Assembly: GCA_009015555.1 (NCBI GenBank)
Contig: GCA_009015555.1_3613.1
Source of the DNA: a phage
DNA: 64,000 nucleotides
Reading direction: 5' to 3' (one strand)
The first letter of the stretch is position 1; each line of letters begins with the position of its first letter. Below are positions 1,449 to 59,024 of this stretch, piece after piece. The notes beneath the pieces were generated by a model. It was not told where the DNA came from. It ran no database searches and worked only from the letters and a program-made list of their open reading frames with translations. Both the position numbers and the translations under genes were made by a program.

Positions 1449-1673
1449 ATGAGAATGATTATCAAAAACACTTTGGGCAAAACTGATTTTCTGCGCTCGC
1501 TGGAGATCGGCAAGCCGCAAGCCTGGTATTGTAAAAAGCTGGCGCATGATGAAATGAAAGATTTTACAGCCACGTTAACCCGTGTTAAAATCAGCATTAC
1601 CCAAAAGAAAGCGCTTTTAGTGATTGAGGGGCAGATCCCGCAAACCGTGATCATTGTTGAGAGGACCGCATAA
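1449..1673 (+). CDS. hypothetical early protein (74 aa)
   Basis: Track ORF, RBS AGAGGA upstream. Confidence 0.5.
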   Translation: MRMIIKNTLGKTDFLRSLEIGKPQAWYCKKLAHDEMKDFTATLTRVKISITQKKALLVIEGQIPQTVIIVERTA

Positions 1674-2409: not shown

Positions 2410-2828
2410 ATTAACAGTGTTTACAGGGGTTGACTTGTTCGCCCCTTTTTTGTTATTCTTATGTCATGCGATGGCACCTGATGCAGGGGGAGACAAACAC
2501 CGGACCTGCCCGCTATTCAGGAAGGCAGACCGGACCTGGGCCGCGCCGGGCAGATGAGAATGATTATCATTTTCAACAAAATCAAATACATACTTTAAAA
2601 CCGTTGTCAAATTTATTTCCGTTTACTGTATAAATGTACATGCCCGCCAAACGCTCTAAATCGCGTTTTAAGCCGTTTTCCCCTTACCCGGTATCCTACA
2701 TCATAAAAATATAGATCTCCCGAAATCGGACTTTCGCACTTTTTGCCCTTGCAAACGTAAAATTTTTATGTTAGACCTGAAGGGCTGAAAGCCGGGTTTA
2801 CGTTGACAAAACTTTACAATTCTCCCTA

Positions 2829-2909: not shown

Positions 2910-3281
2910 ATGAACCTGAACAATTTCAACCGCTACTACATCCGCGACGAACAGGCAAATGCTTTCGGGTATGATCGTTCGTTCGAAATGCAACAGCACG
3001 TAAACGGCGCAAAGTTACACGTTGAAACTGTTACCTTTGAAAACTATTTTATGGCGACCTTTGAAAGCGGCTTACAGATCTCTATTGAGTACAAAGGCGG
3101 CGTGATGACTCTCGCAACAGATGACAAATTACGCCGTAAAGATCTGTTATCACATCCGGGCTACGCAAGCAACAAAGCATTATTGATTAAAATCTATATC
3201 CGCTGGGTAGTGGGCCGCATCGCAACAGAAGAGGAGATCGCCGCCCTGGTAGATCTGGCCCTGAATCTGGATTTAAATTAA
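2910..3281 (+). CDS. hypothetical early protein (123 aa)
   Basis: Track ORF; RBS AGAGAGGAG. Confidence 0.6.
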   Translation: MNLNNFNRYYIRDEQANAFGYDRSFEMQQHVNGAKLHVETVTFENYFMATFESGLQISIEYKGGVMTLATDDKLRRKDLLSHPGYASNKALLIKIYIRWVVGRIATEEEIAALVDLALNLDLN

Positions 3282-3284
3282 TCG

Positions 3285-3313
3285 TTGACAAGGGGGCCGA
3301 AAGGCCCCATAAT
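3285..3313 (+). promoter_or_regulatory. sigma70-like promoter (TTGACA-17-CATAAT) with GGGGCC-GAAA-GGCCCC hairpin in spacer
   Basis: Consensus elements; same architecture repeated at 3673. Confidence 0.5.
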
Positions 3314-3358
3314 ACCCACTCAAGCAACAAACCACTAAAAACACTGGAGACCGTAAAA

Positions 3359-3670
3359 ATGACTAAATCAAAATTTTTCGAAATGCTGGATCGCTACCTG
3401 TCAAGCCATAACGAATGGGCGAAGTTAGGCAACGGCGGCAACGAATACACCGCCGCACAGTTAGAGGGCTATGTATTCCACGAAGATCCGGCCCGTTTGG
3501 CATCTTACAAAGAATCTGATCCGTCTTATCCGTGGGTTGCTCACGCTTCAGGCTTCACCCTTGCCGATTGTTGGCATGTTGAAGTGATGCAACACAAAAC
3601 AGCGGCAGCGGCAGAAAAGCAAGCTGAAATCTTCACCCGCTGGATCGAAGAGTACAAAAACAAAAAATAA
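3359..3670 (+). CDS. hypothetical early protein (103 aa)
   Basis: Track ORF with RBS GGAGA. Confidence 0.6.
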   Translation: MTKSKFFEMLDRYLSSHNEWAKLGNGGNEYTAAQLEGYVFHEDPARLASYKESDPSYPWVAHASGFTLADCWHVEVMQHKTAAAAEKQAEIFTRWIEEYKNKK

Positions 3671-3672
3671 TA

Positions 3673-3701
3673 TTGACTCAGGGGCCGAAAGGCCCCATAA
3701 T
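3673..3701 (+). promoter_or_regulatory. sigma70-like promoter (TTGACT-17-CATAAT) with GGGGCC-GAAA-GGCCCC hairpin in spacer
   Basis: Near-identical copy of promoter at 3285. Confidence 0.5.
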
Positions 3702-3735
3702 GCGATCTCACCCAACAAAACGGGATTAAGCCATA

Positions 3736-3981
3736 ATGAACCGCCTTTTTAAAATCAATCTTCCACTTTGGACCCTGGCGGCGGTCCTCATCGCGTTTTC
3801 TGGCGATACCGTAAACAACTGGATTTTATCCGCTGTACTCGGACCCGATCAAATGGTCACAACATTTTTAAACGCTTTCGGCGCTACACTGGCAACGGCC
3901 CGCCTGGCTTATCGTCGTAAATCCTTAAACCGTTATGATCTGGCGCTGGCACTGCCTGCCCTGGTTACCTGCCTTAACTAA
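3736..3981 (+). CDS. small membrane protein (81 aa)
   Basis: Track ORF; hydrophobic N-terminal segment; followed by terminator. Confidence 0.55.
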   Translation: MNRLFKINLPLWTLAAVLIAFSGDTVNNWILSAVLGPDQMVTTFLNAFGATLATARLAYRRKSLNRYDLALALPALVTCLN

Positions 3982-3998
3982 CATCATTCAGCCAAACA

Positions 3999-4029
3999 GG
4001 CCCGCCACCCCGGCGGGCTTTTCTTTTGT
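3999..4029 (+). terminator. rho-independent terminator
   Basis: GC-rich hairpin GGCCCGCC-ACCC-CGGCGGGC followed by TTTTCTTTT. Confidence 0.6.
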
Positions 4030-4299
4030 CCCCAACGTGGCAAGCCTGGAGGGCTACCCGGTCCGACTCCCCCAGTCAATAGCCCTTATCACTTCCATTT
4101 GTGGAAATCAACACTTAATTTTATTCACTTTAAAGCGCATAATTGAATAAACGAGGGGCTAACCCACTAGCCAGGGTTGAGAGTAGCGGCCCGCATAGGG
4201 CCTTACAGCGCGTTTTAGACCCTATTGACTTCTATCTGCAAACGTGTATCAGGCCAAAACTGACTAAATCACCTTTTCTTTACATAACTTGACACTATT

Positions 4300-4950
4300 T
4301 ATTCATTTATCTGCATAATGCGAGAATGATTCTCATTTACTATCAATAACTTAACTTTTTATTGACTTCTCAGAAAACACGGTTTTACGTTCCCACGGAT
4401 CAAGGGAGGGCGCGCCGGAGGCGCGACCAATAGAAAACAGGTAACGAACCCTCCCCCGTTGCTAGCTCGCAACGGTTTAGCGTTACGTTCCCACGGTCAA
4501 GGGATGACCGCTATCACCTGTTTTCTATTGGTCATTTGAAGGTGTAAACCTTCATAAAGTCAAGCCTTTTTAGTGCCTACAGGCACAAATACGAATTATT
4601 CTCATCTGCATAAAATCGTGTTTTATCTGCATAAATACGTAAACAGGCGGACCCGTACAGCGTAGCGGGGGCCGCATAGGCCCTACAGGGCAAGGGGCTT
4701 TATTGTGCGAAAAGTAAACGAAAGCGTAGCTTTTGCCTGGCAAAATTCACTCTTCGTGTCAAGCGAAAAATAATTTTTTTTTTCTTTTTGCGTAAACGAT
4801 AATGGTTCTCATCCGACAACCATTCTCAAAGGGCGAATGCGAATCATTCTCATTATCATGCCACAAGGTGAGTGAGACTCATTCTCATCTACGCCAGTGC
4901 TGGCGGGCCTCTCCACGTGTTGGGAATGATTATCATTATCCCGAGTGCGT
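4300..4950. repeat. array of imperfect palindromes built on ATTCTCAT / ATGAGAAT half-sites plus TTATCTGCATAA direct repeats
   Basis: At least six sites, e.g. GAGAATGATTCTCAT, AATGGTTCTCAT..AACCATTCTCA, TGAGACTCATTCTCAT, ATGATTATCAT; TCTGCATAA three times. Confidence 0.5.
4381..4535. repeat. nested repeat structure: 16-bp perfect inverted repeat (CCAATAGAAAACAGGT / ACCTGTTTTCTATTGG) flanking direct repeats TTACGTTCCCACGG(A)TCAAGGGA
   Basis: Read directly; additional GGGAGGG/CCCTCCC and GCGCGCC-GGA-GGCGCGC stems inside. Confidence 0.55.
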
Positions 4951-6169
4951 ATAAGGTGTATTATGTTAAATGGGGTATGGTGGCGTGATGCACAGTCGGA
5001 CCGATGAGTCAATAAGAGAAGTGTAAAGATGGGCAAGATGGTAGACATTTTGTGGAGATGATCACGTAAAGCGAGGGCCTACCCGGTCCGATTGAGGAAA
5101 AGCTGAGAGGGGCTAAGTCATTGATTCATAAGGATATTTGGGGAAAATAACGAGGCCCCTCCCCACCCCCTGATCGCCATGCCTGGCAGCAATATCCATA
5201 CGCTGAGATATTTTTCTGGTTTCTGGGCAAGAAGGGCCACCCCTGATCGCGTTCTAAAAATTTTGGCGGGAGGGTAAAAACACCAAAAAGTCAGGGTAGG
5301 TGAGCCTCTCCGGCTCCCTTGATATTTGGGCAATGTGGGAATACAGACGGGTACGTCTCTGTGGGACGGTTACTACCCGGCGGGAGAGGGCCTCCCGGAC
5401 GGGGTGGTGCACCAGCCTGTGGCACATGAGTTATGCACAGGTCTGCCTCTTTAGGCGACAGATGTGGCTCTACAGGTTTACCACTGTGGGAAACAAAATT
5501 GTGGGAGGGAGATACAAAAATACCGCCCGAAGGCGGTTTATAGATGAATTATTTGTCCACCGTGGCTCTCATATATCTTTCGGACAGACTCCAGATTTTG
5601 GGAGTATGTGGTCTCTGTGGGGCCATCCCTTAAAGAGGATGTACCGCAGGTTAGGATTTTCTTACACTCAAGCTCCGCCTTTGTTGCCATTCCGGGTGGG
5701 AACCGATATATGAACAATGGTGTAACCGTGTGGTCTGGATTGTTCCTCTGTAGTTGCCTTATCCTAATCTTTGGTGTGTGGGTAACACCAAACTTGATGC
5801 TCCCCTCACCGACATCAAGTATGTAGGCACAGTCAGGCGACATCCTGTTGGATCTTCGGGACACGACCGCCATTTTATCACGGACTGACAAGTCAACACC
5901 TGGGTTTCTGACTAGGCCCGGCACCAATATATCCGGGCACCTTTTCCTCTCGATCGCTGCCATCTTTTGACTCTGTTCTGAGTACCACTCGTTACCCGAG
6001 ATTGTTTTGTATTTGTTCATATGCGGCCCGCCGTGGGTAATACGCGATGTGTTTGATATTGTGGTGGGCGAGGAACATAGGTCCGACTCTCCAGGTGTGT
6101 TTTCATAAGTGTTCCTCTTTGGCATGTTTGGAATATGTGGGGAGTATACCTATGTTTGGGGAAGGGGTC

Positions 6170-6192
6170 AAGGGCCTTTCGGCCCTTTTTAT
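6170..6192 (+). terminator. rho-independent terminator (plus-strand orientation)
   Basis: Hairpin GGGCC-TTTC-GGCCC followed by TTTTTATA; on the minus strand no U-run follows. Confidence 0.45.
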
Positions 6193-6473
6193 AGGATTTC
6201 AAATTCCTTGCGGAACAGGTCACGCTGGTTGTTGATGAACACCCAGGATGCTACAGGGTGGTCTTCGGAGAAGTCGTCCTTCTCTACAGTGACCACATCG
6301 TATGGTGGGTATGTGAGTGCCTCTACCCGACTGTGGAATCGGTAGACCTTACCGACCACAAACCCGTACTCATTTCCCCTAAGACACCGGGCGGTGCCTA
6401 CGGAAGGGACAGGGCAGTACGCTGGCTTGTATGCCTTGGCCTTCTTGGGGACATTCCACTTATGCGCCGTCAT
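6189..6473 (-). CDS. hypothetical protein (94 aa); last gene of the leftward block
   Basis: Track ORF; ATGA overlap with upstream small ORF. Confidence 0.5.
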   Translation of the reverse strand: MTAHKWNVPKKAKAYKPAYCPVPSVGTARCLRGNEYGFVVGKVYRFHSRVEALTYPPYDVVTVEKDDFSEDHPVASWVFINNQRDLFRKEFEIL

Positions 6474-6613
6474 TCGATCGTCCTCCGTGCATAGTCATAA
6501 CCTTGCTGGAAGAAATCCCACAGGTCCTCAACGTAGGACTTATTGGGGTACTCTGACGGGTCCCAGCCTGTGTGCTCCTCAAAGTATTCGTTGAACTGCT
6601 CGCGTAGTGTCAC
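6470..6613 (-). CDS. small ORF (47 aa, GTG start, RBS GGAGG)
   Basis: Fills gap between two track ORFs with overlapping stop/start on both sides. Confidence 0.3.
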   Translation of the reverse strand: MTLREQFNEYFEEHTGWDPSEYPNKSYVEDLWDFFQQGYDYARRTIE

Positions 6614-6828
6614 AGGTAATCCTCCAACTTTTTGAGCCAGAAACCAGACAGGTCCCGGCGTCGTCTATCCACTGGGCCGCTATCCATGATCTGGTAGATA
6701 ACGCCGTCTCTCTGGTCCTCGAAGATACGCACGTCACAGTCCACATACAGATACCGCAGTTCTTTCTGTGTGAAGCCATACGTCGGATACCAGTCAGAGA
6801 CCTTGACCTCCGGAGGGACCTTAATCAT
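6610..6828 (-). CDS. hypothetical protein (72 aa)
   Basis: Track ORF. Confidence 0.5.
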   Translation of the reverse strand: MIKVPPEVKVSDWYPTYGFTQKELRYLYVDCDVRIFEDQRDGVIYQIMDSGPVDRRRRDLSGFWLKKLEDYL

Positions 6829-7184
6829 GAGGATGCCTTAAACCCGGCGTTCCAGCCGAAGTCGTAATCAGTTTTGGGATCACCGTTCGCGCCCTTGTAG
6901 CCGCCCGGCGGGCACTCACCCTCAAAGTGCTTCAGTGCGTCCACATACCCGATGTACCAGTCCTTGGGCTTGTCCTCTTTCGAGTACCAAGATTCGCGGA
7001 ATACGAACTCTCTCCACAGGTCTTGGATGACGGCGACGTGCTCCCGCTGGCAGCGGCTATACAGGTTGTTCCTGCCGTTGTACAGCATGTCAAAGACACG
7101 CTGCTCCAGCGCTGCCTCTTCGTCACTGTTCGGGATAATCGGATTGTACCCGGCATACGGGCTTCGGTCTTCGGTATTTTCCAC
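6825..7184 (-). CDS. hypothetical protein (119 aa)
   Basis: Track ORF; 4-nt overlap with downstream ORF. Confidence 0.55.
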   Translation of the reverse strand: MENTEDRSPYAGYNPIIPNSDEEAALEQRVFDMLYNGRNNLYSRCQREHVAVIQDLWREFVFRESWYSKEDKPKDWYIGYVDALKHFEGECPPGGYKGANGDPKTDYDFGWNAGFKASS

Positions 7185-49775: not shown

Positions 49776-49814
49776 TCTATAACCCTCATACGGTTGTCTC
49801 GTTTCAATGTGTGC

Positions 49815-49843
49815 ATTCTATGATCCAATGATCCTCTTGTCAA
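49815..49843 (-). promoter_or_regulatory. sigma70-like promoter driving the leftward gene block (TTGACA-17-TAGAAT on minus strand)
   Basis: Plus-strand ATTCTA and TGTCAA read as -10/-35 on minus strand with 17-nt spacer. Confidence 0.5.
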
Positions 49844-49859
49844 TACTTTAAATTTTAAA

Positions 49860-50010
49860 TTTTTCATGTAAGATCTATATAAAGATCCTAAAGATCAATA
49901 GGAATCTTCTATTGTTTTCTTGTTTTTAATAATTATTATGAATGTATATGAATAATAATTATAAGATCAATAATTTATGAGTGGAACGAATAAATTATAA
50001 GATTAATAAA
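49860..50010. repeat. AT-rich region with reiterated (T)AAGATC(A)ATA motifs and clustered GATC sites
   Basis: AAGATCTATATAAAGATCCTAAAGATCAATAGG, TATAAGATCAATAA, TATAAGATTAATAA. Confidence 0.45.
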
Positions 50011-50139
50011 ACCGTAGCCCGGAGGGCGAGCGTAGCGAGGTTTATAGATTCTATTATTACTTCGTGTGCCTTTCAGGGCTACATGGTTGACAACCGATTT
50101 GATTAATGAAACACTGGGTAGGGTTTCAAAGGAGGGTAT

Positions 50140-55477: not shown

Positions 55478-55553
55478 GCTGGATTAGCTCAGTAGGTAGA
55501 GCGCCTCACTTGTAATGAGGATGTCGCGGGTTCGATTCCTGCATCCAGCACCA
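55478..55553 (+). tRNA. tRNA-Thr (anticodon TGT)
   Basis: Cloverleaf by hand: acceptor GCTGGAT/ATCCAGC, loop CTTGTAA, T-loop GGTTCGATTCC, encoded CCA. Confidence 0.8.
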
Positions 55554-55559
55554 GATCAT

Positions 55560-55636
55560 GCAACGTTGCCGGAGTCTGGTAACGGCTCTCGCTGCAAACG
55601 AGATGAGCACTGGTTCGAATCCAGTACGTTGCTCCA
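55560..55636 (+). tRNA. tRNA-Cys (anticodon GCA)
   Basis: Acceptor GCAACGT/ACGTTGC, loop CTGCAAA, T-loop GGTTCGAATCC, CCA. Confidence 0.8.
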
Positions 55637-55637
55637 A

Positions 55638-55714
55638 GCGCCTTTGGTCCAATTGGTAGAGGCACTACATTCAAAATGTAGGGGTTCCCAGTTCGAATCT
55701 GGGAAGGCGCACCA
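55638..55714 (+). tRNA. tRNA with Leu anticodon CAA but short (5-nt) variable arm; identity uncertain
   Basis: Acceptor GCGCCTT/AAGGCGC, anticodon stem CTACA/TGTAG, loop TTCAAAA, T-arm CCCAG-TTCGAAT-CTGGG, A73, CCA. Confidence 0.55.
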
Positions 55715-55730
55715 AAATTTATGTAACCTA

Positions 55731-55759
55731 TTGACATAGTGTAATTATACTGCTAATAT
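55731..55759 (+). promoter_or_regulatory. sigma70-like promoter (TTGACA-17-TAATAT)
   Basis: Consensus -35, good -10, upstream of ORF 55786. Confidence 0.5.
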
Positions 55760-55785
55760 GGATACACTAATTCAATGGGGGCATT

Positions 55786-56160
55786 ATGAGCAAGGCTGCG
55801 ATTGTAACTCGTAAGCGTGGTCGCCCAAGCAAAGAAGAGAGCACAGCAATCGCCCTTGAAAAGGCAATGCTTGATCTCCGAGGCGAATTGGCCCGTCTGA
55901 CGCCGAAGGCCATTCATACTCTCGAAAACCTGCTCACAACAGGCACAGAGAAAGTGAAGGAAACCACGGCGAAGTATATCCTTGAGCAGGCGAAAGAGGT
56001 TAACAACCTCTATACTGAAGAGGATAACGAAGACGACGCAGCAGGCGGCACAACATCTGCCTCTTCTGAAACTCACGCTGGTTCTTCTGACGAGATGAAA
56101 AATGCCATCCCGTTGACAACCCAGATTCGTGAGTATAAAGCAGTAGGCGAAGATGATTAA
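55786..56160 (+). CDS. small basic/acidic protein with AT-hook-like RKRGRPSK motif
   Basis: Track ORF; own promoter and terminator inside tRNA cluster. Confidence 0.55.
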   Translation: MSKAAIVTRKRGRPSKEESTAIALEKAMLDLRGELARLTPKAIHTLENLLTTGTEKVKETTAKYILEQAKEVNNLYTEEDNEDDAAGGTTSASSETHAGSSDEMKNAIPLTTQIREYKAVGEDD

Positions 56161-56163
56161 CTG

Positions 56164-56190
56164 GAAGGCTCCCGAAGGAGCCTTTATTAG
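56164..56190 (+). terminator. rho-independent terminator
   Basis: AGGCTCC-CGAA-GGAGCCT then TTTATT. Confidence 0.5.
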
Positions 56191-56325
56191 AAGTTCTCTT
56201 TTGACGGGCACTTGTTAACGACCCGCAGAATGACGACGGTGTACAACGGCGTTTGATGGCGAGGAAGGTCTATAGGGATCAGCGCAGATCCTTGGATGTC
56301 AGGTGAGCCGTACAAAAGAGAATTT

Positions 56326-56413
56326 GGGGAGTTATTTCCGTAGAGGTAGCGGTGCAGACTGTAAATCTGTTGTCATTGCGACTCGGGTGGTTCGACTCCA
56401 TCACTCCCCACCA
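56326..56413 (+). tRNA. tRNA-Tyr (anticodon GTA), long variable arm
   Basis: Loop CTGTAAA, variable arm GTCATTGCGACTC, T-loop GGTTCGACTCC, CCA. Confidence 0.8.
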
Positions 56414-56419
56414 AATTAT

Positions 56420-56514
56420 AGTAGGATGGCTGAGTGGCTTAAAGCAGCATCTTGGAAAGGTGTCGGATCAGGTAACCCCTGGTCCCGGGAGTTCAAATCT
56501 CCCTCCTACTGCCA
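56420..56514 (+). tRNA. tRNA-Ser (anticodon GGA), type II
   Basis: Acceptor AGTAGGA/TCCTACT, D-loop GAGTGGCTTAA, loop TTGGAAA, long variable arm, CCA. Confidence 0.75.
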
Positions 56515-56518
56515 GACC

Positions 56519-56595
56519 GGATCGTTAGCTCAATTGGTTAGAGCAAGGGACTTTTAATCCCGAGGTTCGGGGTTCGAGTCCCTGACGGTCCACCA
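56519..56595 (+). tRNA. tRNA-Lys (anticodon TTT)
   Basis: Acceptor GGATCGT/ACGGTCC, loop CTTTTAA, T-loop GGTTCGAGTCC, CCA. Confidence 0.8.
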
Positions 56596-56760
56596 GAAAG
56601 GAAGAGGGTCCAAGCTGGTAATGCGAGAGGCGAGTCCTCAGACCAAAGCCCAGATGGAGGCCACCCTAAAGTCGTCCAACCGAAGGTCCCTGATTGAGTA
56701 ATACTTCCCCGCTTGTCGGGTACAGTTCTCAGTCACACCGGAAGGGGCGCACCCTATAAT

Positions 56761-56836
56761 TGACGGTGAGCATATAAGGACATGCGGGGGCCTGTTAAGT
56801 CCAGGATAGCTGGTTCGAATCCAGTACCGTCAGCCA
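56761..56836 (+). tRNA. tRNA-Asn (anticodon GTT)
   Basis: Acceptor TGACGGT/ACCGTCA, loop CTGTTAA, T-loop GGTTCGAATCC, CCA. Confidence 0.75.
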
Positions 56837-56945
56837 ATTTGGTTCCGACAAGGTGACGGCGCACCCCGGAGCGACGCTGAAAGATGCAGGCCGACGAACA
56901 CATACGTGTACTTAATCAATAGTCATTGCGATGGCTATTCGTTAA

Positions 56946-57023
56946 GTCCTGGTAGACAAACTGGATAAAGTCACCACCCTTTCAAGGTGGGGTTTGAGGG
57001 TTCGATCCCCTCTCAGGACGCCA
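56946..57023 (+). tRNA. tRNA-Glu (anticodon TTC)
   Basis: Anticodon stem CCACC/GGTGG, loop CTTTCAA, T-loop GGTTCGATCCC, CCA. Confidence 0.75.
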
Positions 57024-57117
57024 ATCTTTTAGGTCGGTAGATTAATGAGCAAAGGCCGCTCGCTGGATTCCAACCCCAGTTCAAGGCGTTCGATTCGTCA
57101 CCTTCCTGCCAAATTCA

Positions 57118-57193
57118 GGTCCTATGGTATTAGCGGTAAACATACTCGCCTGTCACGCGAGAGTCACGGGTTCGAATCCCGTTAGGACCGCCA
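57118..57193 (+). tRNA. tRNA-Asp (anticodon GTC)
   Basis: Acceptor GGTCCTA/TAGGACC, loop CTGTCAC, T-loop GGTTCGAATCC, CCA. Confidence 0.8.
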
Positions 57194-57200
57194 CTTCAAA

Positions 57201-57275
57201 TGGGGATTAGCTCAGGGGTAGAGCGCACAACTGATAATTGTGAGGTCGGTGGTTCGAAACCACCATCCCCAACCA
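57201..57275 (+). tRNA. tRNA-Ile (anticodon GAT)
   Basis: Acceptor TGGGGAT/ATCCCCA, loop CTGATAA, T-loop GGTTCGAAACC, CCA. Confidence 0.8.
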
Positions 57276-57345
57276 AACAGCCCCTCCCGGGATTGGACCG
57301 GGTTAACGGCAATCGCACACTGAGGCGTCTTCCGGGGGAACAATA

Positions 57346-57422
<77 letters not shown>

Positions 57423-57428
57423 AATTAT

Positions 57429-57503
57429 TGCGAGGTAGTTCAGCGGTAGAACAGGGGTTTCATACGCCTCATGTCGGCAGTTCGATTCTGCCCTTCGCAA
57501 CCA
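57429..57503 (+). tRNA. tRNA-Met (anticodon CAT; initiator/elongator/Ile-lysidine not resolved)
   Basis: Acceptor TGCGAGG/CTTCGCA, loop TTCATAC, T-loop AGTTCGATTCT, CCA. Confidence 0.7.
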
Positions 57504-57509
57504 AATCAT

Positions 57510-57587
57510 GCTCCAGTAGCCCAATTGGTAGAGGCACTTGATTTAGGATCATGTCAGCGATGAGTTCGAATCTCTCCTGGAGTACCA
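57510..57587 (+). tRNA. tRNA-like gene with Leu anticodon TAG, short variable arm and weak T-stem; identity uncertain
   Basis: Acceptor GCTCCAG/CTGGAGT, D-arm CCAATTGGTAGAGG shared with 55638 tRNA, loop TTTAGGA, A73, CCA. Confidence 0.45.
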
Positions 57588-57593
57588 CATAAA

Positions 57594-57667
57594 GCGGGCA
57601 TGGTATAGTGGTTGTGCCTTAGCCTTCCAAGCTAATGAGTCCGGTTCGATCCCGGATGTCCGCTCCA
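57594..57667 (+). tRNA. tRNA-Gly (anticodon TCC)
   Basis: Acceptor GCGGGCA/TGTCCGC, stem TTAGC/GCTAA, loop CTTCCAA, T-loop GGTTCGATCCC, CCA. Confidence 0.8.
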
Positions 57668-57740
57668 ATTCACGGTGAGTCACTGCCGTTAAGTGTGAAG
57701 TTAAAAATGCCCGTGGTGATCGGGTTATCTCACCCAGTGT

Positions 57741-57816
57741 AGGGGATTAGTTTAATTGGTAAAACATCGGGTTTTGATCCCGACATCGCGAGGTTCGAAT
57801 CCTCCATCCCCCGCCA
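57741..57816 (+). tRNA. tRNA-Gln (anticodon TTG)
   Basis: Stem TCGGG/CCCGA, loop TTTTGAT, T-loop GGTTCGAATCC, CCA; 1-72 is A-C mismatch. Confidence 0.7.
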
Positions 57817-57898
57817 CATTAATGCTCATTAGCTCTTGTCAGTGGAACTCGAACCCTTAGAGCAGGCGACACAGACGTGTGTTTTAGTGAGCATCAAT

Positions 57899-57974
57899 GT
57901 GGCCTTAATTCAGCAGGTAGAATCCCCGGTTGTGAACCGGGCAGTCGTGGGTTCAAGTCCCACAGGTCACCCCA
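57899..57974 (+). tRNA. tRNA-His (anticodon GTG)
   Basis: Acceptor GTGGCCT/AGGTCAC, stem CCCGG/CCGGG, loop TTGTGAA, C73, CCA. Confidence 0.8.
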
Positions 57975-57978
57975 ATCT

Positions 57979-58071
57979 GGAAGATAGGGCGTAGTGGTAC
58001 GCACCCGGATTTGAACCCCGGCCCGCTGTGGCGACCCCACGGTGATAGTTCGACTCTATTATCTTCCGCCA
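57979..58071 (+). tRNA. tRNA-Ser (anticodon TGA), type II
   Basis: Collinear with bacterial tRNA-Ser(UGA): acceptor GGAAGAT, loop TTTGAAC, long variable arm, ...TTCC-G-CCA end. Confidence 0.7.
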
Positions 58072-58092
58072 CCCCTGATCATAAGGCAAACT

Positions 58093-58785
58093 ATGTTAGA
58101 AATGTTAACAGTGGGTAAATACACCCCTAGTCCTATAATTTCTAGCCCTATGGATGCTTATTTTGAGGGCGAGAGGAATAATAAATACGGCACTGTTGAG
58201 TGGGTTGTTCCTCAAGGCGTCACCTCAATCTGCTGTGTAGTGATAGGCGCAGGATCTTCTGGCAGAAGCGGCGGTCTTTCTTGGAGAAACAACATTCCAG
58301 TTACACCTGGTGAAAAACTTAAAATGCAGGTTAACTCCACAGCCAGCGCCCTCTTGAGAGAGACAACTATCCTTTGTGCTGCCCAGTGTGGCGGCAACGG
58401 AGGAAAAACATATAACTCTGTGAACGACGGTGGAGGCAATGCTGGACAATCACCACATGGTAGAGGTGGTGCTGGCGGCTACACCGGGAATGGTGGTGAT
58501 GGGCATACGTTCACAGGTGGTCCAGGACCAGGGTCCCCAGGTTCAGGTGGCGGCGGCGGCGGAGGCGCAGTTGTGTATCTGAACGGATCATTGACACCAA
58601 CTGTCTGCGGCGGAGTCGGCATGTATGGACAGGGGTCGAATGGTGGCGCTGATAACAGCGCCGGATATCCAGGCTCCGGCGGTTCTGGAACAAGATACGG
58701 AAGAGCAGTCGATGGTTATGGTGTTGTCAGGGTTGTGTGGGGAAATTATTCATTCCCAACAAATGCCCCGAGACCGAAATCCTGA
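58093..58785 (+). CDS. glycine-rich repeat protein (GGxGG tracts, poly-Gly run) embedded in tRNA cluster
   Basis: Track ORF 58042..58785; start at ATG after AAGG just downstream of tRNA-Ser. Confidence 0.5.
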   Translation: MLEMLTVGKYTPSPIISSPMDAYFEGERNNKYGTVEWVVPQGVTSICCVVIGAGSSGRSGGLSWRNNIPVTPGEKLKMQVNSTASALLRETTILCAAQCGGNGGKTYNSVNDGGGNAGQSPHGRGGAGGYTGNGGDGHTFTGGPGPGSPGSGGGGGGGAVVYLNGSLTPTVCGGVGMYGQGSNGGADNSAGYPGSGGSGTRYGRAVDGYGVVRVVWGNYSFPTNAPRPKS

Positions 58786-58856
58786 TAGGGATGGTCCCTA
58801 CGAGGATCGTCTTTTGCTCAGTGGTACTCAGCATTTACTTAGTATTCAAACAATAT

Positions 58857-58943
58857 AGAAGAGTGGCGAAATAGGTAGCCGCACCGGACTGCTAATCCGG
58901 GGTCCTTCGGGGCCTGAGAGTTCAAGTCTCTCCTCTTCTGCCA
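58857..58943 (+). tRNA. tRNA-Ser (anticodon GCT), type II
   Basis: Acceptor AGAAGAG/CTCTTCT, stem CCGGA/TCCGG, loop CTGCTAA, long variable arm, CCA. Confidence 0.75.
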
Positions 58944-58948
58944 AGCAT

Positions 58949-59024
58949 GGAACTGTAGCTCAGTTGGTAGAGCGGTTGCCTGAAGAGCAGCGCGTCAGCG
59001 GTTCAAATCCGTTCAGTTCCACCA
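58949..59024 (+). tRNA. tRNA-Phe (anticodon GAA)
   Basis: Acceptor GGAACTG/CAGTTCC, D-arm TAGCTCAGTTGGTAGAGC, loop CTGAAGA, T-loop GGTTCAAATCC, CCA. Confidence 0.8.

Follow-up and report, generated by a model that had tools for sequence, protein, structure and literature searches.

Fur, the ferric-uptake regulator, is a dimer that binds DNA in its Fe2+-loaded form, and fepB-entC, fepD-entS, fepA-fes and the fur promoter are established Fur operators. Sites for host regulators, Fur boxes among them, are already known on phage DNA. Cyanophages carry PhoB and NtcA boxes through which host nutrient regulators time phage genes, and stx1 carries a Fur box on a lambdoid phage. In temperate lambdoid phages, a Fur box is also located upstream of sitABCD (PMC6969025). 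The present analysis concerns positions 4300-4950 of a 64,000-nucleotide stretch of phage DNA (contig GCA_009015555.1_3613.1 of assembly GCA_009015555.1; the whole stretch is called the window below), where a first-pass annotation, made from the letters alone, had noticed an array of palindromes and repeats. The motifs lie in a 1.5-kb gap free of open reading frames (ORFs). The palindromes are very probably Fur boxes, and we hold with moderate confidence that they would serve as iron-responsive Fur operators on sigma-70 promoters for noncoding transcripts.

The phage sites resemble the enterobacterial Fur operators (fepB-entC, fepD-entS, fepA-fes, the fur promoter and aerobactin iucA) in being built from hexamer repeats, or overlapping 7-1-7 dyads, with 6-bp offsets, and in matching the consensus at up to 17/19. 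They differ from them by their location in a convergent ORF-free gap with no iron gene or protein gene downstream, by the greater density of the array and by a bias of the hexamers to GAGAAT/GCGAAT. With the lambdoid examples they share the presence of a host Fur site on phage DNA, which would bring phage-borne transcription into the host iron regulon; however, the lambdoid boxes are single and precede a prophage cargo operon, whereas here an array lies in the early region of a virulent phage and has no cargo. The cyanophage boxes serve other regulators in another host phylum and precede auxiliary metabolic genes. A further parallel is the untranslated iss region of T5-like phages, with its eight DnaA boxes (bioRxiv 10.1101/866236). 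Here too, an extensive and highly conserved stretch of a big virulent phage is left untranslated and is crowded with repeats, palindromes and binding sites of a host protein, but the protein is DnaA rather than Fur, the region is in the terminal repeat, and the gap of the window holds no DnaA-box cluster. Fur is mentioned neither in the CB7 Certrevirus paper nor in the iss preprint (bioRxiv 10.1101/866236), and the literature searched yielded no account of Fur boxes in any virulent phage, Vequintavirinae included.

The array stands well apart from chance. The word ATTCTCAT has four copies on the + strand of the window, all of them within 4329-4881, where about one per strand would be expected. 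TCTGCATAA, announced in three copies, is indeed found three times on the + strand, at 4310, 4605 and 4626, all in the region, as are the three window copies of ATCTGCATAA (0.06 expected). Dinucleotide-preserving shuffles of 4300-4950 were made, 5000 for word counts and 2000 for matches to the 19-bp Fur consensus GATAATGATAATCATTATC. None of the 5000 attained either word count, whether that of ATTCTCAT or that of the TGCATAA-type repeat. Scored out of 19 against the consensus, the region has seven matches of at least 13 (shuffle mean 0.14), four of at least 14 (0.019) and three of at least 15 (0.003), and no shuffle among the 2000 attained any of these counts. Over the whole window, eight of the nine matches of at least 14/19 fall in the first 5 kb. 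The resulting density, about seven boxes in 620 bp, is far above that of every host locus scanned. The claims of a palindrome and repeat array and of a non-random sequence are therefore upheld: the sequences are all present and their counts exceed those of every shuffle.

At least six palindromes had been said to share a half-site. All the quoted sequences were found, within a few bases of where they had been placed, but those at 4591-4609 and 4815-4827 offer little beyond a single good half-site each. Read in register, the palindromes follow G-N-G-A-A-T-N-A-T-T-C/A-T-C-A-T. The sites are given below with their consensus match and, where available, their column identity among 11 relatives.

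4322..4340: Fur box 1, GAGAATGATTCTCATTTAC, 15/19, column identity 0.97; quoted palindrome GAGAATGATTCTCAT at 4322-4336.
4591..4609: weak Fur-like site ACGAATTATTCTCATCTGC, 11/19, with a single good half-site and joined to copy 2 of ATCTGCATAA; the least conserved box, column identity 0.72; quoted palindrome ATTATTCTCATCTGC at 4595-4609.
4792..4828: Fur-like boxes GTAAACGATAATGGTTCTC and GATAATGGTTCTCATCCGA, 13/19 each, with an inverted partner GACAACCATTCTC at 4815-4827, column identity 0.94-0.95; quoted palindromes AATGGTTCTCAT at 4801-4812 and AACCATTCTCA at 4818-4828.
4833..4857: extended Fur operator GCGAAT-GCGAAT-C-ATTCTC-ATTATC, in which two 19-mers overlap at a 6-bp offset (4833-4851, 14/19; 4839-4857, 15/19); quoted palindrome AATCATTCTCATTATCAT at 4843-4860.
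4868..4892: Fur-like operator GTGAGT-GAGACT-C-ATTCTC-ATCTAC, 13/19 and 12/19, column identity 0.94; quoted palindrome TGAGACTCATTCTCAT at 4873-4888.
4922..4940: Fur box GGGAATGATTATCATTATC, 17/19, the best match of the region, column identity 0.99; quoted palindrome ATGATTATCAT at 4926-4936.
2556..2574: strong Fur box GAGAATGATTATCATTTTC, 17/19, outside the array, between genes in 2409-2910.
1451..1469: Fur box GAGAATGATTATCAAAAAC, 15/19, also outside the array, over the ATG of ORF 1449-1673.

The core of Fur box 1 is GAGAAT-G-ATTCTC, a perfect 6-1-6 palindrome. The arrangement at 4833-4857, with two forward and two reverse hexamers, is a textbook layout that would fit two Fur dimers. The sites at 4792, 4798, 4868 and 4874 match the consensus at 12-13/19. 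An operator array for a dimeric DNA-binding protein, as first proposed, is thus well in keeping with the dyad and hexamer-repeat layout, with the excess over chance and with the conservation in relatives. The regular spacing that had been described was not found, since the start-to-start distances are 269, 248, 35 and 48 nt. As an observation on the outlying box at 1451, rV5 likewise has a box covering the start codon of a small ORF (near 117040-117064).

The identity of the protein was approached with weight matrices built from the phage sites only, which were run over the enterobactin cluster of E. coli K-12 and its surroundings (49 kb). When the matrix holds the six focal-region sites alone, the four top-ranking E. 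coli positions are fepB-entC (twice), fepD-entS and fepA-fes. With all eight window sites, the first three are fepB-entC (twice) and fepD-entS, and fepA-fes comes seventh. Together these three regions make up 1.5% of the sequence scanned. The fur promoter's own box ranks first or second when these matrices are applied to the fur locus. Because a matrix derived from the phage recovers the E. coli operators, its specificity is equivalent to that of genuine Fur operators. The motif is therefore, in all likelihood, the enterobacterial Fur box GATAATGATAATCATTATC, in a form that admits G or C at the third hexamer position. A tblastn search with E. coli Fur gave no homologue in the window or in Cronobacter phage CR3, its closest relative (no E value below 0.9), and a phage-encoded Fur was rejected on this basis. 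Three phage ORFs (44621-44902, 50140-50508 and 55786-56160) had been put forward as candidate binders. Their Pfam matches are all below threshold (RHH_5, 17.9 bits for a threshold of 26; TrmB, 13.7 for 25.6; AT-hook, 15.3 for 17.4), and this proposal was not retained. The sites rather suggest host Fur than a phage protein.

Conservation in related genomes had been named among the points to check, and the motif is conserved there. Megablast with 3900-5600 returned 30 phage records, all from Vequintavirinae; the closest is CR3 (93.3% identity, 92% query coverage) and the others include phages of Enterobacter, Pantoea, Klebsiella and Pectobacterium. Judging from this similarity, the source of the window is a virulent, CR3-like Certrevirus. 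The boxes are retained in 11 Certreviruses from five enterobacterial host genera, as would suit a universal host factor that the incoming DNA meets on entry. Mean column identity is 0.93 in the box cores, 0.97 in the ATCTGCATAA copies and 0.88 in the rest of the region. The variation within boxes consists of ATTCTC to ATTATC (C/A) swaps, inside the consensus; at box 4322, for instance, the two forms alternate among relatives. In phiTE, CB7, PcCB7V and DU_PP_IV, inserted segments add further boxes, with near-perfect copies of GATAATGAGAATCATTATC, which we take to be essentially the iucA box. The complete CR3 genome has 15 matches of at least 14/19, against 2.3 +/- 1.6 in shuffles, and 13 of the 15 are within 80.1-93.2 kb. 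They include a second array of comparable enrichment, outside the window, formed of four near-palindromic boxes (e.g. ATGAGAATCATTCTCAT) at 80150-80262 in a 960-bp ORF-free gap between CR3_127 and CR3_128, where GGGTCTCGATCG and CGTATTCTC repeats are found too. The gap of Salmonella phage SSBI34 can for the most part not be aligned, yet it is enriched in Fur-like boxes (none of 1000 shuffles reaches the count) and the juxtapositions of TGCATA with a box are kept, the one at box 1 reading TGCATATGAGAATAATTATC. What is observed directly is the motif, how enriched and how conserved it is, and that it is equivalent to genuine Fur operators.

The motif extends beyond this subfamily. A sensitive BLAST search with 4780-4985 gave a 58-nt match in two Demerecviridae, T5-like phages of Vibrio. 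It is about 80% identical to window 4834-4891 and takes in two boxes, again at a 35-bp spacing. In Vibrio phage vB_ValS_X1 it falls within an untranslated gap of 1.45 kb, flanked by convergent genes, which has five Fur-like boxes (a significant enrichment), three perfect DnaA boxes and iterons. In T5-like Vibrio and marine phages (L016, 1494-2939; L106, L044, L039, L024 and L090), Fur arrays adjoin three to five perfect DnaA boxes, and the gaps hold iterons such as TAGAATCCGCACTCACA in three copies or more. The 18-mer GAATGCGAANCATTCTCAT is found at 93 IMG/VR loci, corresponding to about 28 lineages after clustering; 64 of the 78 evaluable viral matches fall in ORF-free gaps, and for nine matches two or more perfect DnaA boxes are located within 600 nt. 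Dereplicated bacterial genomes totalling 596 Gb hold this 18-mer in only 56 stretches, against a chance expectation of about 17.

This distribution bears on a second explanation, in which the sites would be operators for another dimer of Fur-like specificity, from the phage or from the host, and the preference for GAGAAT/GCGAAT...ATTCTC would be a real code. It is true that five sites share ATTCTCAT instead of the canonical ATTATC, that GAATGCGAANCATTCTCAT is over-represented in viruses relative to bacterial genomes, and that the two-box stretch with its 35-bp spacing is common to the Vibrio phages. However, the phage matrix ranks genuine E. coli Fur operators first, relatives freely swap ATTCTC and ATTATC at the same site, and no candidate protein was found (no Fur homologue, sub-threshold matches for the three ORFs named above, and no regulator gene among those flanking the gap). 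The finding of one motif in phages of five host genera, and in Vibrio phages too, is in keeping with a universal host factor, and a different protein is considered improbable. That the repeats would be functionless remnants of local duplication is hardly credible. Repeat families D1 and D2, whose 27-nt units are 70-78% identical, do outreach the box and suggest local duplication; against this, the repeats are conserved in 11 phages, recur in the non-alignable SSBI34 gap and in Vibrio gaps, vary within the consensus, and have counts that no shuffle matches.

To consider what Fur might control here, the following elements of the gap are needed.

4289..4319, + strand: predicted promoter P2, TTGACA at 4289-4294, 19-nt spacer, CATAAT at 4314-4319.
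4604-4613 and 4625-4634, + strand: tandem copies 2 and 3 of ATCTGCATAA, 21 bp apart, with CATAAA at 4609-4614 and 4630-4635.
4380..4535: conserved structured element between two TGCATAA/Fur composites, with an 18-bp perfect stem pairing 4425-4442 with 4516-4533.
4945..4971, + strand: single-copy invariant element GTGCGTATAAGGTGTATTATGTTAAAT, 27 nt, with -10-like hexamers TATAAG and TATTAT.

The TCTGCATAA repeats had been described as interleaved with the palindromes. Interleaved they are, but they are better read as promoter sequence than as part of the operator: TCTGCATAA most likely holds the -10 element (CATAAT or CATAAA) of putative sigma-70 promoters overlapped by boxes. CATAAT is the -10 hexamer of the best sigma-70 promoters of the phage, at 3285 and 3673. 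P2 contains copy 1 of the repeat as TTATCTGCATAA (4307-4318) and is invariant in 11 relatives, and the ten bases CATAATGCGA are identical in copy 1 (4314) and in the -10/start region of the strong early promoter 3673. Fur box 1 begins 3 bp past the -10 element of P2. Copy 3 of ATCTGCATAA is kept in all relatives, and the composite ATTMTCAYCTGCATWA has identical spacing in the window, in the inserted copy of phiTE and in SSBI34. The equivalent gap of rV5 has a tandem pair of CTGCATAA, read as the reverse complement. Altogether, the -10-like hexamers of the predicted promoters at 4314, 4609, 4630 and 4950 are abutted or overlapped by boxes, the main array (4792-4940) stopping 10 bp short of the one at 4950. 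The ATCTGCATAA repeat was also compared with other regulatory motifs, and we take it to have no convincing match to the Pho box, the ARG box, CpxR sites or others. The pseudo-ToxI antitoxin repeats of phiTE were considered for the repeats and rejected.

Fur binding in vivo, the activity of these promoters and the nature of their products are what we infer from this arrangement. About seven boxes, each with two to four GATAAT-like hexamers, would form an ORF-free control region. The box at 4322 would cover positions of about +1 to +20 of P2, including the transcription start, and the box at 4591 would cover the -35 element and spacer of the tandem promoters at 4609 and 4630. Host Fur would already be in the cell when the phage DNA enters. 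In an iron-replete host, Fe-Fur would occupy the boxes and the noncoding units, including the element at 4380-4535, would be repressed; in an iron-starved host, the promoters would fire. Part of the early programme could in this way be keyed to the iron status of the host without a phage-encoded sensor. The element at 4380-4535 may be seen as a candidate noncoding RNA driven by P2. As proposed, it would resemble the Fur-repressed small RNAs of the RyhB type, which are noncoding transcripts from a sigma-70 promoter under a Fur box, made in iron limitation; it differs from RyhB by lacking homology in sequence or structure and by being a candidate only.

Several observations weigh against this interpretation. 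The promoters of the gap are predictions throughout. The 19-nt spacer of P2 is beyond the 16-18 nt accepted by the scanner and suboptimal for sigma-70, and the CATAAA hexamers, without the conserved final T and without a good -35 element, are suboptimal as well. The boxes have no protein-coding gene downstream because the flanking blocks converge on the gap. Conservation is little higher in the boxes than in the rest of this very conserved gap (0.93 vs 0.88). The gaps of rV5 and of Erwinia Henunavirus pEp_SNUABM_01 hold one to three boxes, which is not significant (p ~0.08-0.14), so that the dense array is a trait of Certrevirus and SSBI34 and not of all Vequintavirinae. SSBI34 has about 55 bp between the last box and the 4945-type element, the Erwinia phage about 150 bp, and rV5 carries its boxes on the opposite side of that element; such a variable distance is unlike a strict operator. 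Concerning the RNAs, the element at 4380-4535 folds equally well on both strands, with G-U pairs on each, and no convincing conserved RNA fold was found 3' of the array (4958-5172), the consensus being weak (-17.6 kcal/mol) and covariation almost nil (term of -0.11).

Some of these features would rather favour the main rival, in which the array is a sponge: after replication, hundreds of phage genomes would titrate host Fur, and no phage promoter would be regulated. The host regulon would then be derepressed (iron uptake, RyhB-mediated iron sparing and NrdHIEF), providing iron for the iron-dependent ribonucleotide reductases of the phage. Multicopy Fur boxes are known to derepress Fur-regulated reporters, as exploited in the FURTA assay, of which such a sponge would be a natural version. 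The genome has about 15 boxes, concentrated in ORF-free gaps without a downstream gene; their number varies by insertion of whole boxes, as if number outweighed position; their position relative to the invariant element differs across genera; and CR3 encodes NrdA/NrdB. The association of Fur arrays with clusters of perfect DnaA boxes in unrelated T5-like vibriophages also has the look of a platform for host proteins. A pure sponge would nevertheless have no need for the fixed juxtapositions of boxes and -10 sequences across genera (TGCATA with a box; the spacing of ATTMTCAYCTGCATWA), and we consider titration alone rather unlikely. It is possible to go further and to imagine that large virulent phages carry decoy arrays for host global regulators, Fur here and Fur with DnaA in T5-like vibriophages, which would soak up these regulators on replication and derepress iron uptake and ribonucleotide reduction, the module being convergent or exchanged between Vequintavirinae and Demerecviridae. 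This generalization is offered as an unlikely conjecture.

The DnaA boxes raise another question, that of an origin or of a nucleoprotein architecture. The repeats might be iterons or accessory sites, or a packaging or injection signal, with Fur or an initiator bending the DNA beside 4945-4971 and the AT-rich tract 4769-4790. The large conserved ORF-free gap, with its many repeats and hairpins, its unique invariant 27-nt element and its short T-rich tract (4769-4790), is compatible with such a role, as is the presence of Fur arrays beside perfect DnaA boxes and iterons in T5-like vibriophages; the untranslated iss region of T5 provides a precedent (bioRxiv 10.1101/866236). The first-pass annotation had also mentioned iterons. 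However, the sites are irregularly spaced, the gap has neither a cluster of DnaA boxes nor an initiator gene beside it, and it is a convergent junction at a local maximum of the cumulative GC skew, which is not the pattern of an origin. The skew minimum is at 49.8-50.0 kb, where a divergent, AT-rich and GATC-rich junction makes a better origin candidate. A signal of the T5 terminal-repeat type is unlikely, since phiTE is reported to be circularly permuted (PMC3475682). Altogether, an architectural role appears distinctly improbable, and the iteron reading is not supported. The gap also departs from operators of the lambda OR/OL type, being located between the 3' ends of genes and 40-51 kb away from the candidate ORFs. 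Regarding the junction at 49780-50050, its GC content is 0.43 and its GATC-rich repeats are TATAAGATCAATAA and AAAGATCCTAAAGATC; it is plausibly a replication origin or a major divergent promoter region.

If Fur does occupy the sites, a strictly virulent phage would read the iron status of its host through a protein already in place at DNA entry; alternatively, the phage would disarm Fur by titration. Bacteria in infected tissue, and those of many plant and aquatic niches, are normally limited for iron, and Certreviruses are being developed against Cronobacter, Enterobacter, Klebsiella and Pectobacterium. An iron-dependent behaviour of these phages, if true, would be relevant to therapy and biocontrol. 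More generally, regulation by Fur offers a concrete candidate function for a large conserved ORF-free region of a kind that is routinely left unannotated in big phages.

The gap itself separates two convergent blocks of small early-type genes. On the + strand, the small genes finish at 3981 and are followed by a terminator at 3998-4020; on the − strand, they finish at 5538, with a terminator at 5537-5522. The genes flanking the gap are small, convergent and hypothetical, and no regulator gene is found among them. In CR3 the counterpart is 92.3-93.8 kb, which closes a + strand early block running from 69 to 92 kb, and in careful annotations of relatives the same gap is nearly empty. Small proteins from the ORFs 4802-4954(+) and 4809-5048(-) were considered and rejected: substitutions are spread as 61/60/59 over the three codon positions, and stops occur in relatives.

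For the structured element at 4380-4535, comparison of 10 phages, the distant SSBI34 among them, shows eight to nine pairs with compensatory changes, whichever strand is read. Hairpins also occur inside it, and a 20-mer, TTACGTTCCCACGG(A)TCAAGGGA, is present twice (4385 and 4483). Rfam 15, searched over 3000-7000, gave at E<=1 only Trp_leader, at 24.3 bits for a gathering score of 41, and known RNA families, RyhB included, were set aside for this element, with no Rfam match above threshold. The two stem arms (4425-4442 and 4516-4533) are where the deposited PBES 02 genome has its ends, probably through an assembly break. Two paralogous hairpins, GGCCCGCATAGGGCC at 4184-4203 and GGGCCGCATAGGCCC at 4665-4684, each lie about 50 nt downstream of GCATAA(T/A) and may be the 3' ends of two small transcripts.

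The 27-nt element GTGCGTATAAGGTGTATTATGTTAAAT has no second copy in the window or in CR3, and it is invariant in four lineages of Vequintavirinae. SSBI34, the Erwinia Henunavirus and Serratia phage Kashira retain it, and in rV5 it is found as the reverse complement with four mismatches. It could be a promoter, or a site for another, conserved phage protein.

Further promoter-like sequences are present around the array. The strong early promoters predicted at 3285-3313 and 3673-3701 (TTGACA or TTGACT, 17-nt spacer, CATAAT) both have as their spacer the perfect GC hairpin GGGGCCGAAAGGCCCC. TTGAC occurs eight times in the gap, over both strands (4079, 4223, 4360, 5012, 4289, 4500, 4563 and 4762), four times as TATTGACT, and most copies have no recognisable -10 element. 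Those at 4563 and 4762, on the − strand, have upstream A-tracts and resemble the published consensus of Certrevirus early promoters. At 4341-4353, TATCAATAACTTA fits the IHF consensus WATCAANNNNTTR, a match that chance would produce about 0.05 times in the gap; the 11 Certrevirus relatives keep it almost unchanged, and in SSBI34 the match is inexact. The right half of the gap (5030-5520) has recurrent GATATTTGGG(G/C)AA, TGTGGGAA and AAATTTTGGCGGGAGG, which are also present in SSBI34. Elsewhere in the window, 18 tRNA genes are clustered at 55478-59024 (+), as in CR3.

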